Origin: Escherichia coli
Lineage (GTDB): Bacteria > Pseudomonadota > Gammaproteobacteria > Enterobacterales > Enterobacteriaceae
Assembly (NCBI RefSeq): GCF_001677475.2
Contig: NZ_CP012498.1
Reading direction: 5' to 3' (one strand)
DNA: 64,000 nt
Shown: piece after piece, positions 674 through 12,600 of the stretch
How positions within the stretch are numbered: the stretch's first letter is position 1
How the letters are laid out: the number at the start of each line of letters is the position of its first letter
Made by a program: the position numbers

Positions 674-3600
674 TGACCACTTCAGGTCTGGGTGGCAGAT
701 ATAACGTATGTTGCCACCCGGGAAGGATGGCTGTATATCGCTGGCGTCAAAGATGTTTATACGAGCGAAATTGTCGGTTACGCCATGGGAGAGCGCATGA
801 CGAAAGAGTTGACGGGTAAAGCCCTGTTTATGGTGCTCAGGAACCAGCGCCCACCTGCCGGGATAATCCACCACTCCGATCGTGGTTCACAGTACTGCGC
901 ATACGATTACAGGGCCATACAGGAGCAGTTTGGTCTGAAAACATCAATGTCGCGTAAAGGTAACTGTTACGACAACGCTTCGATGGAAAGCTTCTGGGGA
1001 ACACTGAAAAATGAAAGTCTGAGCCACTATCGTTTTAAGAGCCGGGATGAGGCCATCTCAGTAATACGGGAATACATTGAGATTTTCTACAATCGTCAGC
1101 GTCGTCACTCTCGTCTGGGGAATATCTCCCCGGCAGCCTTCAGGATAAAATATTATCAGATGGCTGCTTAGAAAAAGAACAAATGGTGGTGTCCGCTATT
1201 GCCAGTACACCTCAGCCTTGCAAACAGGGATGTGTTCATCTAGAGAATGTAGAAGCCAAATTTTAACTAATTGTGCACATTTTAAAGAGGAGTGCACAAT
1301 TGGTTAAAATTATTTAGAAAGATAACTTATTATTAATTTTATATCCTTGGATACTGAGGGGTATAAAAGGATGTTAAAAAATAATGGCATTTTATTTCGT
1401 TGGGAAAATTGCTGAGTATCTGCCAGTATTTAAAACATTAAATCTAAAAACAAAATGGGTTAAAAAGTTTAATGCTAATTGTTATAATTAGTGCGGTAGC
1501 TATTTAAAAATGGTAGAGATATTGACCTCCTAAATTTATTGATGATATGAAACTTGCGTTTTATTCTCATGATACGATGGGGCTTGGGCATTTACGGCGA
1601 AATCTTTTGCTTGCAGGAGCAGTTCAGAAAAGGTTTTCTGATACTGAAATTTTGATTATTAACAGTGCCCGTGAATCCGGATTATTTACACTACCTGACC
1701 GTTCAGATATTCTTACGTTACCAGCCTATGCCAAAACGTTGTGCGGCAAATATCACCCCCGGTCACTGGGCAATGATACCCGGAAATTGGTTAGCCTTCG
1801 GAGACAGATAATTCGAGCTGCATTGAGTGAATATTGTCCGGATGTAATGGTTGTGGATAATGTACCTGCTGGGGTGTTATCAGAACTGCTGCCGGTGCTT
1901 CCGGAATTGGTTGATGATAATGTGCATCTGATTCTTGGACTCAGGGATATTATTGATGAACCATCAGTTGTTCGTCATCAATGGCATGCTGCAGATAATT
2001 ATACGATTGTCCGTCAGTATTATTCTGATATATGGATTTATGGCGATCGTTCATTCTATGATTTGTCGCTTGATCTTGCTCCGGAACCATCAGTATACCG
2101 AAAAATCAGTTTTCTTGGATATCCGGATGTTCCATTATCTCCATCGGTGTTACAGGATGAGCAATTTCAGTCTCTGATTTCTCGTCCATTCGTATTATGT
2201 CTTACAGGGGGAGGGCAGGATGGCTACCACCTTGCATCTGTATTTGCAGAGACATTGTTACCGCCAGGGATGGACGGTGTTATTCTTACCGGTAGCCAGA
2301 TGGCTCGGGAGGAAGTGACATCATTACAGCGTATTGCGTCCATGCGTAATGATTTACATATTATTCGTTTTGTATCTGATCCTCTTTTTCTTCTACAGCA
2401 TACGCACAGCGTAGTGGCAATGGGGGGATATAACACCTTACGGGAAATTCTTTCATTACGGAAACGGGCATTGATTATTCCCCGTATTGTTCCTCGTCTT
2501 GAGCAATGGATACGTGCTTCACGGATGGCAGAAAAGAATCTGGTTACATGTTTGCATCCGGACAGTCTGACGCCACAGTCAATAACTGATTGGCTGATTT
2601 CCGACTGGTGTCCTTCAGATCCACGACTTTACCTCAGTCTGAATGGGCTACATTCCTTTACAGAAAAAATGAACGCGATATTTACAGCGCGGAGAAAACA
2701 TAATTAAAATCAATGACATGGAGAGTGTAATGGATAATAAACACCCTTATGTCGGATATGTGGTTAAACGCTATCCCCGCTTTTCAGAAACATTTATTGT
2801 CAATGAAATTCTCGCTCATGAACGAGCCGGAATGAAGCTGGATATTTTCGCCCTTGGAGATGTTCAGGAGGCTTTTTTTCAGGAATCTATTTCCCGGGTA
2901 AAAGCACCGGTAACTCGTTTTAATTCTAGGCAATATAATGCTGAATATTATCATGATTTACTGCGCCGTTCTTTTCCGTTACTACCGGAACTTTCCGGAT
3001 GTTTTTCCGATCCCGGATATAATCATGTACACGAATTTGCTCAGGCAGTGATGTTGGCAGCAACTGTACAGGAAAGAGGGATCAGGCATCTTCATGCACA
3101 TTTTGCTACAAAAGCGACCACAGTCGCTCGCTTGGCAGCAAAACTCGCAGGGATCACGTACAGCTTTACCGCACATGCGAAAGATATTTATTTTGATTAT
3201 CCTGAAGACTCTGCAATTTCCCTGAAGCTCCGGGATGCGAGCCGGGTGATTACTGTATCAGATTATAATTGTGCTTGGTTGCAGAAAAAGTATGGTGGAA
3301 ATCTGGCTTCACTGGAGAGGCTTTATAACGGTATTGATTTACAACAATACCTGTGTCGCGACAATCTCATAGGGCCGGAAAACACTGAAATATTGGCGGT
3401 GGGACGTTTGGTCGTTAAAAAGGGCTTCAGTACGCTGATTGAAGCGCTGCGTTTGTTGTATTGTCGGGGAATGAATTTTCACTGCACTTTAGTGGGAGAT
3501 GGTCCTCTAAAAGAGACTCTGAGGCGACAGGTTGAAGAGAGTGGTCTGTCGTCTGTCATCACACTGACCGGAGCCCAACCTCAGGGATATGTGAAAATGG

Positions 3601-9600: not shown

Positions 9601-12600
9601 GGATATATAGGGGGAAGTTTGCGTGAAGTCGGAGCAGAAATTCGAGCCGGGCGGTGGCTGTACCGCGATGTCAGAGAATGGCTTTTTGATGAAAATCTTG
9701 ATGGTATATGGGGGCGCTGGAAAAAAGATGACTGGCAGGTGGAGATGGTGGCAGGACGTGTGAATTACTGGCAGCGAGATTTGCTTGATGATACAACACG
9801 TAACAAAAGTGTGATATCCGTACAATCTGCATTTTTGCAGTACAGTGTGGAAAAGGACTGGGATACCGGTATTTATTTTGCTGTAAATAAAAACACGCAT
9901 GATGTATATGAGCGTCAGTCTTTTTACGGGATACGTTCCCACAGTACATCGGATACGGGATGGCGGCACTGGCTGGAGGTCGGAGGAATGTATGCAGAAA
10001 AATCCGAAAAAAAATATCAGGGGAGGGTAATTGATGCAGGGCTTACCTGGATTCATAACAGTCCATCGCGCAGCCGCTTTACTCTGGGTTACGCCATAGC
10101 CAGTAAAAAATATCATCAGACCGGATTGCAGTCGAATGAAGCCAGCTTTGGTGGAAATACTAAATTCAGTATTTATGGTAATACATTATCTCCAGAGTTG
10201 ACAAATATACGTATCCTGACGGTTGGCACTGGAATGGATATATCCCCAAGCAGTTCACTGGATCTTGTATATCATTATTATAGACAATCAGACAGGGATT
10301 TTTTATCTTCTCATGATCCAGACCTGAAGTCCCGTTATGACAATAGTTCTACTCTGGATCTCGGGAGTGAAATAGATCTTATCTGGGGCTACGAATTTAG
10401 TAAAAATATAAAAACTGAGCTATTGCTAGGGATGTTTATGCCATCAGAGCGTTTTCGGGCATCATCTACTGAAAATTCTCCCCGCAGTTCCCCTGCATAT
10501 TCAGTCGGTCTAGAAGTAGAAATAAAAATTTAACTGAATAATCGTTATTTTTATGGTGTGAAATATGAATATTACCGTTTCAGGAACTGGATACGTTGGG
10601 TTATCCAATGCACTACTTCTTGCACGTTATCATAATGTGACGGCATTTGATATTGATGCCATTAGGGTTGAGCAGTTGAACAAACGAATTTCACCGCTTG
10701 ATGATGATGAAATACGGGAGGTATTCCAAACTGGGAATATTTGTTTTAAAGCAACCACGCATAAAAGTGAAGCTTACCTAGATGCTGATTATGTTATAAT
10801 TGCTACTCCAACTGATTATGATCCTAATACAGGATTCTTTGATACTGCTTCTGTGGAGTCAGTTATAGAAGATGTGGTAAAATTTAATCCACAGGCAGTG
10901 ATAATCATTAAATCAACGATCCCTGTTGGATTTACAAAAAAAGTCAGACATAAATATTGCACTGACAAAATAATATTTTCACCAGAATTCTTACGTGAAG
11001 GGAAAGCACTATATGATAATCTCTATCCATCTCGAATTATTATCGGAGAGCGTTCAGAGTGCGCGAGGAATTTTGCCAGTATTATGAAAAATGCCGCAAT
11101 GAAAAGGGATGTACCCGTTTTGTTCACAGAGCCTGCAGAAGCTGAAGCAATAAAACTATTTTCCAATGCTTTTCTCGCTACAAGAGTGGCATTTTTCAAT
11201 GAACTTGATACCTATGCTGAAATTACGGGGCTGAACACTAAAGATATAATCAGAGGTGTCTGTCTGGATAGAAGAATTGGTGATTATTATAATAACCCAT
11301 CATTTGGTTATGGTGGATATTGTCTGCCAAAAGATACGAAACAACTGAAAGCAAACTATGATAAACTAAATATACACTGCGATATTATTACTGCTACAGT
11401 GAGAGCAAACGATACACGTAAATCTTTTATTATACAGAGAGTATTGGAAAAAAAACATAAAGTAGTGGGTTTTTATCGAATTATTATGAAAAATGGTTCA
11501 GATAACTTCCGTGAGTCTGCCGTTATGGATATCATCCGTCAACTAAAGTCAAGAGACATATCTATTATTATATATGAACCAATATTGCAAAATAAAACAG
11601 TAAGTGATTTAATATTAGTCAATGAATTGCCTGTATTCAAAAAAAAGTCAGACATTATACTCGCGAACAGAATTACAGATGAATTAATGGATGTCAGAGA
11701 TAAAGTATATACTCGTGATATATATTCACGAGATTAATTCTTTATCAAGCATCTTTTCGCCGGATGAGGCAGTAAAAAATGATACCAGTGAAATACCGTT
11801 CACTTAATCGGAGCGGCACTCATTTCACTTTGATATCTTAACCGCCCTTGGCCTTGATGGTAAGCGCTTCACCGTCTTTCGCCTCCCTTTCCTGTTTCTG
11901 ATACCAATGTCCATTTTCGCAGTAAAAGGACATTTAAGATGAATGCACGAAAGGCGGTACTGGCAGATAATCCGGAATTAATCCCGCGTGTGCTACAGCT
12001 GAGATTTGACGAGTCACTGTCGTACCCGCGCATTTCTGCGCAGACTGGTGTCAGCAAAACCGCTATTTTTTCTCTGGTGAAGCGATTTCACTAGGTATTC
12101 ACTGACTGGCCCCTTTCCGGTGAATAGCAGTCAGGCAGCAGCGAAGCAAAGCGTTACTGACGTCGCTGCATGAATGGATGGTGGAGAAGAATGGCACGCT
12201 GTCGAAAAACTCCAGACTGGGCGAAGCGTTCAGCTATGTACTGAATCAGTGGGACGTCCTCTGTTATTACAGTGATGACGGTCTGGCGGAGGCGGACAAT
12301 AACACAGCGGAAAGAGCGCTTCGTGCTGTCTGTCTCGGAAAGAAAAATTACGTGTTCTTCGGTAGCGATCACGGCGGCGAGCGTGGTGCACTGCTGTACG
12401 GGCTGATCGACACCTGCCGTCTGAACGGTATCGATCCGGAAGCGTATCTGCGCCATATTCTGAGCGTACTGCCGGAATGGCCCTCCAACCGTGTTGACGA
12501 ACTCCTGCCATGGAACGTAGTTCTCACCAATAAATAAGCGTCAATACGGTGCTCCGTTGACGCTTACAGTGTAGCGGTATTTAGGACTTTGTCTGCAATC

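Follow-up and report, generated by a model that had tools for sequence, protein, structure and literature searches.

Several bacterial envelope pathways assemble a glycan in the cytoplasm and then pass it to an ATP-binding cassette (ABC) exporter. In the lipopolysaccharide (LPS) inner core pathway, cytoplasmic GT-B glycosyltransferases (GTs; the GT4 enzyme WaaG) and sugar kinases (WaaP/WaaY) are followed by a fused type IV exporter, MsbA. The Escherichia coli O9a pathway (WbdA/B/C, WbdD, Wzm/Wzt) combines GT4 enzymes, a glycan kinase that acts before export and an ABC exporter. Cytoplasmic glycans are also exported by ABC proteins in the cyclic beta-1,2-glucan system (NdvA/ChvA) and in the KpsMT-KpsED capsules, and the alg operon of Pseudomonas includes AlgE, the outer-membrane exit pore of a polyuronate. 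The msbA2 operon of Sinorhizobium meliloti (SMb21188-21191) encodes GTs and an MsbA-like exporter for an unidentified polysaccharide and is controlled by ChvI (PMC3687685). Here we describe a locus that resembles each of these in part. It lies between positions 1547 and 11737 of a 64,000-nucleotide stretch of E. coli DNA from contig NZ_CP012498.1 (the window) and comprises eight genes, A to H, on the + strand. The locus is probably a glycoconjugate synthesis-export system, built from familiar protein families in an unfamiliar and very widely conserved arrangement. We favor the reading, with a probability of about 45%, that its product is a short, anionically decorated glycan or glycoconjugate that is made in the cytoplasm, exported and secreted.

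The eight open reading frames (ORFs) are co-directional and either overlap or are closely spaced. They encode an inverting GT-B glycosyltransferase of the GT1/GT28 clan with the N-terminal motif HDTMGLGHLRRN (gene A, 1547-2707), a WcaL/EpsE-like GT4 glycosyltransferase (gene B, 2730-3977), a second GT4 glycosyltransferase (gene C, 3974-5143), a fused MsbA-like ABC exporter (gene D, 5133-6947), two APH-fold kinases (gene E, 6937-8223; gene F, 8198-9211), an AlgE-family outer-membrane beta-barrel with a putative signal peptide (gene G, 9214-10533) and Ugd (gene H, 10565-11737). The junction spacings from A to H are +10/+22, -4, -11, -11, -26, +2 and +31 nt. The first junction has two values for two candidate starts of gene B, 2718 and 2730, and the latter is more likely after mapping of the RefSeq start. 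GGAG Shine-Dalgarno (SD)-like motifs are located 5' of the internal starts, including those at overlapping junctions. The longest ORFs of genes E and G would begin at 6898 and 9193. On plasmids with 99% identity RefSeq annotates the same eight coding sequences, all intact and free of pseudogene flags. Both the ORF listing and the RefSeq annotation agree with the first-pass annotation of the window, in which eight tightly packed same-strand ORFs between insertion sequence (IS) fragments were described. Its family calls, namely three GT-B enzymes (two of them GT4), a fused ABC exporter, two kinases, an AlgE-like barrel and Ugd, were all correct. The barrel and kinase ORFs, which might have turned out to be of unrelated families, match PF13372 and PF01636.

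Genes A to F form a cassette that is defined by a GT1/28-like GT, a GT4, a second GT4, a fused ABC exporter and two APH kinases in this order, and the window carries all six. One genome per species was scanned for 100,044 species. At least 237 relatives of the cassette were found. From 80 retrieved loci all ORFs were compared with the eight E. coli proteins, and colinearity was counted over the 68 loci with enough upstream flank. The order A-B-C-D-E(-F) was colinear on a single strand in 64 of the 68. The neighbourhood search in other genomes that had been proposed with the first description of the locus therefore recovered the same A-F arrangement widely, and a gene mix that had appeared peculiar to the plasmid turned out to be a fixed set. 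The relatives are 25-60% identical to the window proteins, with 36-60% for chromosomal copies in Enterobacterales. The cassette spans more than 12 phyla. The hosts include Enterobacterales (chromosomal), Rhodobacterales, Granulosicoccus, Lampropedia, Sphingomonadaceae and Competibacteraceae, and other bacterial hosts belong to Nitrospirota, Chloroflexota, Actinomycetota, Cyanobacteria, Planctomycetota, Gemmatimonadota and Acidobacteriota, with one spirochaete. Roseobacter sinensis and the cyanobacterium Gloeocapsopsis dulcis, for example, have the same succession of A-like GT, GT4, GT4, ABC exporter, kinase and kinase. The archaeon Ca. Methanoperedens nitroreducens carries a complete six-gene cassette with 31-47% identity on a 721-kb contig (4541-12294 of locus L033), which looks like an inter-domain transfer. 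The downstream neighbours of the cassette are unrelated housekeeping genes, and the cassette is therefore self-contained. The fact that the six-gene order is kept across more than 12 phyla and an archaeon indicates that it must make something generally useful.

In 24-27 loci, which represent several classes, a histidine kinase and an OmpR-family response regulator adjoin gene A (for example 2075-4172 in locus L004 and about 1900-4400 in Rhodobacterales). The pair is divergent in Rhodobacterales and Granulosicoccus, co-directional in cyanobacteria and absent on the Escherichia plasmid. Its position beside gene A suggests dedicated signal control. Three further conserved flank families produced by clustering were discarded as antisense shadow ORFs over this pair in high-GC genomes. 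A related but distinct cassette was seen in the Ruegeria TM1040 megaplasmid, Mesorhizobium, Shinella and pNGR234b of S. fredii NGR234 (loci L088-L091). It has an A-like (33%) and a B-like (35%) GT, then a third GT, an ABC protein of about 900 amino acids (aa) with a partner that binds cyclic nucleotide monophosphates, a polysaccharide deacetylase, and a methyltransferase or histidine phosphatase. Nucleotide-sugar dehydrogenases are located in its flanks. More than 220 rhizobial replicons carry this cassette, which likewise seems to be uncharacterised.

Sequence searches of A and G against the PDB gave no usable matches. The structural matches of gene A are GT1/GT28 enzymes acting on small molecules or lipids, including the macrolide-inactivating OleD/MGT, with identity at the level of the fold only. 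Gene A is the probable enzyme of the first sugar transfer. Gene B matched the NCBIfam models EpsE (4e-52) and WcaL (2e-36), both below their cut-offs, and TuaC was also among its best models. Its nearest solved relatives are BshA, MshA, sucrose-phosphate synthase and PimB/PimA. Gene C matched NCBIfam GT4 families at 1e-26 to 1e-16, and its nearest solved relatives are the sucrose-phosphate synthase Tll1590, MshA and GlgM. Orthologues with 88-89% identity to B and C were assigned to GT4 by Pfam as well. All of these solved relatives act on small or lipid acceptors. The 3' end of gene B contains a 12-nt tandem repeat encoding AGIQ (3930-3977), present in three copies in the window. Plasmid NZ_CP169400 has one copy fewer, so that the gene B protein differs by 4 aa between plasmids that are 99% identical.

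Gene D encodes a half-transporter of the type IV ABCB/MsbA kind, in which the Pfam domains ABC_membrane and ABC_tran are fused. Walker A (GPSGAGKST), signature (LSGGQRQR) and Walker B (ILLDEP) motifs are all present. MsbA, TAP and HlyB were the best NCBIfam models, and D remained under every curated equivalog cut-off. The scores were 380 bits against a cut-off of 602 for the MsbA model TIGR02203 and 316 against 867 for PRK11176; HepA (320 bits), NdvA (276, cut-off 733) and ChvA (228) were also below cut-off. By this measure D is not an MsbA equivalog, and the host chromosome carries its own msbA. The best PDB matches were ABCB1, ABCB4, BSEP, Sav1866, BmrA and MsbA. Basic residues are kept at two of the three equivalents of the positions through which MsbA contacts the phosphates of lipid A (R78, R296, K299), and two extra lysines are found on transmembrane helix 6 (TM6).

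The likeness of D to MsbA raises the question of an envelope glycolipid made by LPS-core logic. A would then act on a membrane lipid (diacylglycerol-type, polyprenyl-linked or lipid A-like), B and C would extend the sugar, E and F would phosphorylate it at the inner face in the manner of WaaP/WaaY, D would flip it like MsbA, and the barrel would have another role. Both A and D do look like handlers of lipids or amphipaths. We nevertheless consider such a glycolipid unlikely. In addition to the score of D under the MsbA cut-off, the locus differs from the LPS inner core pathway in lacking GT9 heptosyltransferases, in having kinases of the PF01636 APH type with a maltokinase-like cap instead of the Kdo/WaaP family, and in the attachment of a dedicated porin-type barrel (AlgE-like or OprB), which in the absence of a periplasmic bridge is ill-suited to lipid transport. 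Only PF01636 was matched by E and F, and no WaaP-type model appeared in their NCBIfam results. Moreover, the cassette is also found in monoderms and in an archaeon, which make no LPS, and the archaeon has different membrane lipids.

Gene E matched PF01636 (APH) at 1.4e-14 and gene F at 9e-6, and F is a paralogue of the catalytic part of E. H306-G-D308...Q313 and D327-x-D329 of gene E are invariant, and gene F carries HRDFYPDQ and LDFD. The AlphaFold2 model of E (pLDDT 90) has an extra N-terminal cap, or duplicated N-lobe, as in the maltokinase architecture. Foldseek gave maltokinase, choline kinase, APH and Mph as top matches, of which maltokinase was the best full-length one (12-14% identity). 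E is thus assigned as a small-molecule kinase of the APH fold. Many phyla have homologues of E at about 30% identity, which are often fused double kinases, and clustering of the family at 50% identity gives 2,478 representatives (E <= 1e-30). In a hidden Markov model search, E was followed by a second kinase in essentially all loci. E and F are fused into a single ORF in most Proteobacteria, and also in the closest chromosomal copies from enterobacteria. The two Escherichia variants of the locus have separate ORFs, which are divided at the domain border and overlap by 26 nt (8198-8223); the second, F, has a GTG start behind a strong SD of its own. In a planctomycete-like metagenome contig a protein of 1,128 aa (P0148; 9001-12387 of loci L093/L094) joins a Sulfotransfer_1/NoeE-like domain to the double kinase, and the cassette is otherwise a standard A-B-C-D. 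By its domains this fusion implies that sulfation would accompany phosphorylation in that lineage. Because a sulfotransferase is fused to the kinase pair there, the kinases are suggested to be glycan-tailoring enzymes that add anionic groups. The fusion also suggests that they act on a finished glycan rather than make a sugar-1-phosphate donor. A product that was at first called possibly phosphorylated is now better founded, with H-x-D...Q and D-x-D motifs kept in both kinases and with the sulfotransferase fusion.

The cap and the APH-like kinase domain of E are shared with the maltokinase Mak/Pep2 of the GlgE pathway, and GlgM is among the solved relatives of C. However, the loci contain no TreS, GlgE or GlgB, and TreS_Cterm was matched by relatives of E at about 1e-5 at best. 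A further candidate, a ribosomally synthesized peptide or glycopeptide pathway, was considered for the match of the kinase to the LxmK model (1.9e-9) and was rejected; no conserved small ORF lies upstream, and the upstream DNA differs between the Escherichia variants. The kinase profile also matches capreomycin, corramycin, macrolide and viomycin phosphotransferases. Together with the OleD/MGT matches of A and the closeness of D to the multidrug transporter ABCB1, this would accommodate the modification and efflux of foreign compounds, in which a toxic small molecule is glycosylated, phosphorylated and pumped out, with the barrel as an entry or exit pore. We consider this very unlikely. The identities to resistance enzymes are 11-16%, at the level of the fold, and two extra GT4 enzymes in fixed order are unexpected for detoxification. 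The six-gene colinearity across phyla, the private Ugd and the fused sulfotransferase all point to biosynthesis.

Genes G and H stand outside the six-gene set. Gene G matched PF13372 (Alginate_exp) at 1.4e-23 over model positions 9-391 of 395. Its N-terminus, MFRNGSGRFCGYFLLFFVCGVVPVQA ahead of SE, is signal-peptide-like when read by eye. The protein is Arg-rich with an isoelectric point of 8.9. An AlgE-like barrel was found in 24 of 85 loci, in diderm lineages only, and in 18 of them directly after F (Enterobacterales, Lampropedia, Nitrospirota, Competibacteraceae and Sphingomonadaceae). An SLH-OprB porin takes the same slot in two cyanobacterial loci. An outer-membrane channel gene is missing from all 17 monoderm or archaeal loci. 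The barrel is basic in Enterobacterales and acidic overall elsewhere, and its overall charge was therefore set aside as a sign of an anionic substrate. Gene H matched PRK15057 at 1.4e-170 (567 bits, cut-off 757), far above every other dehydrogenase model, and the NDP-sugar dehydrogenase model TIGR03026 with 341 bits, above the cut-off of 189.8. Specificity for UDP-glucose is likely by this match. H is a plasmid-borne second copy with 66-69% nucleotide identity to the chromosomal ugd, and its GC content (0.35 versus about 0.47) sets it apart, with a higher synonymous divergence (dS) too. Ugd occurs only in the two Escherichia versions of the cassette and in none of the 80 non-Escherichia loci. 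Because it is an Escherichia-only add-on that duplicates chromosomal ugd, glucuronic acid cannot define the product of the system. Glucuronate, from which the first-pass annotation had drawn an acidic product by way of Ugd and UDP-glucuronic acid, probably enters the E. coli version.

These two genes bear on a reading close to that of the first-pass annotation, in which the product is an acidic polysaccharide of the capsule or exopolysaccharide (EPS) type, perhaps phosphate-terminated, that leaves through the ABC pump and then the AlgE-like barrel. The near full-length Alginate_exp match of G and the attached Ugd in Escherichia are consistent with it. Gene B fits EPS and teichuronic-acid GT4 models (EpsE, WcaL, TuaC) best, and D reaches 320 bits with HepA, in a class of type IV exporters that handle glucans (NdvA) and heterocyst polysaccharide. 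The WbdD kinase of E. coli O9a is a chain terminator upstream of an ABC exporter and would offer a precedent for the phosphate. Nevertheless we judge a polymer improbable. No locus contains a processive synthase, priming transferase, polysaccharide co-polymerase (PCP), outer-membrane polysaccharide export (OPX) protein, AlgK-like scaffold or ABC-2 transporter of the Wzm/Wzt-KpsMT type, and the only GTs are three single-domain GT-B enzymes. Many diderm cassettes have no outer-membrane component, Ugd falls outside the conserved set, and two universally conserved, fused kinases exceed the needs of a terminator. As far as the sequences can tell, three GT-B enzymes that appear non-processive, relatives with small or lipid acceptors and an amphipath-type pump give no sign of a long polymer.

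Comparison with the known layouts was extended to the conserved neighbourhood. Neither the window locus nor the conserved neighbourhood of the 80 loci contains a priming phosphoglycosyltransferase, Wzx, Wzy, PCP, OPX or GT2/processive synthase. Wzx/Wzy, KpsMT/KpsED and synthase-dependent layouts are excluded because their hallmark proteins were tested for and are absent; the mismatch with these three layouts that was remarked on from the start is borne out by the family assignments. In Wzx/Wzy O-antigen, capsule and colanic acid loci the hallmarks are the priming transferase, Wzx, Wzy and Wzc/Wza, all absent here. Group 2/3 capsules have separate KpsM and KpsT, whereas D is fused, and KpsE (PCP-3), KpsD (OPX) and KpsS/KpsC are absent. 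The cyclic glucan system differs in its NdvB synthase, which is not found here, and D is below the NdvA and ChvA cut-offs. Unlike the O9a pathway, the locus has a fused ABCB exporter, no methyltransferase, no carbohydrate-binding extension of the nucleotide-binding domain and no link to WecA/WaaL, and it has two APH-fold kinases in place of one WbdD-type kinase. With alginate secretion it shares the Pfam family of G, also Arg-rich, and in Escherichia an adjoining gene for uronic-acid supply. The alginate system differs in its synthase Alg8/Alg44 (with Alg44 as the cyclic di-GMP receptor), AlgK, AlgX, AlgG and lyase, none of which is found here, whereas the inner-membrane step here is an ABC exporter and barrel G is missing from many copies of the cassette.

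The S. meliloti msbA2 operon is alike in having GTs followed by an MsbA-like pump and in its two-component link, which is also found beside many copies of the cassette. It has an acyltransferase and no kinases, and it was rejected as an orthologue, with 27% identity between MsbA2 and D and no BLAST match of the adjacent GTs to A, B or C at 1e-3. The Clr/cAMP-regulated polysaccharide cluster of S. meliloti was also considered as a rhizobial relative and is a different cluster. Nod-factor pathways resemble the system in the logic of a small decorated oligosaccharide, with a NoeE-like sulfotransferase in one lineage and a NodB-type deacetylase and a methyltransferase in distant relatives. However, no NodC-type GT2, NodA acyltransferase or NodIJ is found here, and the likeness is a functional analogy only. 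There is no specific NCBIfam model for A, E, F or G. PADLOC gave only generic ATPase or kinase-loop matches, and an anti-phage defence function was rejected.

A second Escherichia version of the locus (L005, GCA_049745855.1) is 86% identical and adjoins a different fimbrial operon. Homology between the two versions begins exactly at the start codon of gene A. The ratio of nonsynonymous to synonymous divergence (dN/dS) between them is 0.12-0.20 in all eight genes at dS 0.33-0.70, which indicates that the locus is under purifying selection and is not decaying. After ugd, L005 has a PAPS_reduct/CysD-like ORF (14889-15427), a weak match (E 1.6e-6) that is cut by the contig end. The locus region of the window is 99% identical to large IncF-type virulence plasmids of the p7v-like kind (CP012499-CP012501, AP025742, CP169400), whose hosts are Shiga-toxigenic/enterotoxigenic (STEC/ETEC) hybrid E. 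coli and Escherichia cryptic clade I. At least 80% of the region was present in 17 of 5,426 complete E. coli genomes and was plasmid-borne every time. On these plasmids it is flanked by a K88-like fimbrial operon and a SPATE protease on one side and by fdnGHI on the other. A paper on clade I Escherichia covers these plasmids and does not mention the locus. The small number of genomes, the IS fragments on both sides and an AT-rich upstream region that is not conserved would also suit hitch-hiking cargo, a remnant of horizontal transfer, caught between IS scars and silent or non-functional in Escherichia. Against this, eight intact ORFs with no pseudogene flags, the low dN/dS against the variant and the preserved coupling signals make such a remnant exceedingly improbable.

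The left boundary of the system is marked by one or more fragments of an IS3-family (IS600-like) transposase at 692-1171 (+ strand), and the right boundary by IS66 TnpA and transposase fragments at 11927-12526 (+ strand). Both lie outside the system; their positions come from the ORF listing and from the RefSeq annotation of a plasmid with 99% identity, transferred to the window (for the left boundary, offset 7439). A consensus scan gave a candidate sigma-70 promoter on the + strand (1460-1488; TTAAAA-17-TATAAT with an upstream TG and an AT-rich leader). It is context-specific and unproven, because the 86% variant does not share the upstream region. The same kind of scan found a hairpin over the ugd stop codon (11712-11732, + strand) as a possible terminator. 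Directly past the right IS66 scar, a plasmid-borne second formate dehydrogenase-N (fdnGHI) lies on the - strand at 12629-17225, and a 3-hydroxybenzoate/gentisate degradation operon follows beyond it in the window; metabolic genes of either kind are unusual on a virulence plasmid. The region from about 27000 to 64000 contains, judged by its similarity to annotated plasmids, EAST1 (astA), ST-Ia (sta1), several IS3/IS2 copies, parA/parM and ehx, which confirms the hybrid STEC/ETEC background of the plasmid.

From the family and fold assignments, the synteny and the selection described above, we infer a substrate and an order of steps. Gene A would transfer the first sugar in the cytoplasm to an acceptor supplied from outside the cassette, which may be a membrane lipid or else a molecule that is small or lipophilic. 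Genes B and C, as retaining GT4 enzymes, would add further sugars. The kinase pair E/F would then place one or more phosphate groups on the glycan in ATP-dependent tailoring steps, and a homodimer of D would carry the product, now phosphorylated, through the inner membrane. Passage of the outer membrane of diderm hosts may be provided by barrel G, presumably transcribed together with the other genes, or in cyanobacteria by the SLH-OprB porin. In Escherichia the private Ugd would supply UDP-glucuronic acid, and the product probably carries glucuronate besides phosphate. The porin-type outer-membrane components favor a soluble product. Export by the ABC pump and then the barrel, as first proposed, remains the simplest reading where a barrel accompanies the cassette, which is in diderms only; it does not account for the many diderm loci from which the barrel is missing. 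Less weight is given to the basic residues of D on TM6/TM2 at the positions where MsbA binds lipid A phosphates, to the Arg content of G, and to the distant A-B cassettes of rhizobia and Ruegeria with other tailoring enzymes and nucleotide-sugar dehydrogenases.

Several points weigh against a short, secreted, anionic glycan. The substrate claims are all drawn from families with diverse substrates. The likeness of A and D to enzymes and pumps that handle lipids or amphipaths fits a membrane-retained glycolipid equally well, and a porin is no obvious route for a lipid. Little can be built on basic residues and Arg content, since a positive-inside bias is widespread and G outside Enterobacterales is acidic overall. 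The outer-membrane step is not universal, as most loci of Rhodobacterales, Planctomycetota and Gemmatimonadota have no barrel within 10 kb. GT4 pairs can be polymerases, as WbdA is, and chain length is not fixed by family. Finally, the suspicion of an undescribed system agrees with our finding no description of the locus, and no characterised locus with this arrangement, in NCBIfam, PADLOC or the searchable literature; absence from the literature is no proof of being undescribed.

A wider proposal can be put forward tentatively. The cassette may be a phylum-spanning route for a small, multiply anionic oligosaccharide or glycoside that is phosphorylated, in some lineages sulfated and in E. coli glucuronylated, although we regard this as rather doubtful. 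We are equally hesitant about the second part of the proposal, that such a route would use an ABCB-type exporter and an AlgE-/OprB-type channel without polyprenol-linked intermediates, PCP/OPX proteins or a synthase. If true, it would be a fourth layout for the export of envelope glycans. The product could then serve as a signal outside the cell, as a matrix or ion-binding molecule, or, on STEC/ETEC virulence plasmids, as a factor in the interaction with the host.

The Escherichia copy, beside K88-like fimbriae, a SPATE protease and the heat-stable (ST) enterotoxin, may change what cryptic clade I, an emerging pathogen lineage, displays on its surface or secretes. With eight intact genes on about 10 kb, it is also a handy entry point to the whole family. 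The identity of its product would give functions to a GT1/28-like GT family, to a two-kinase family and to many Alginate_exp barrels in bacteria that make no alginate.

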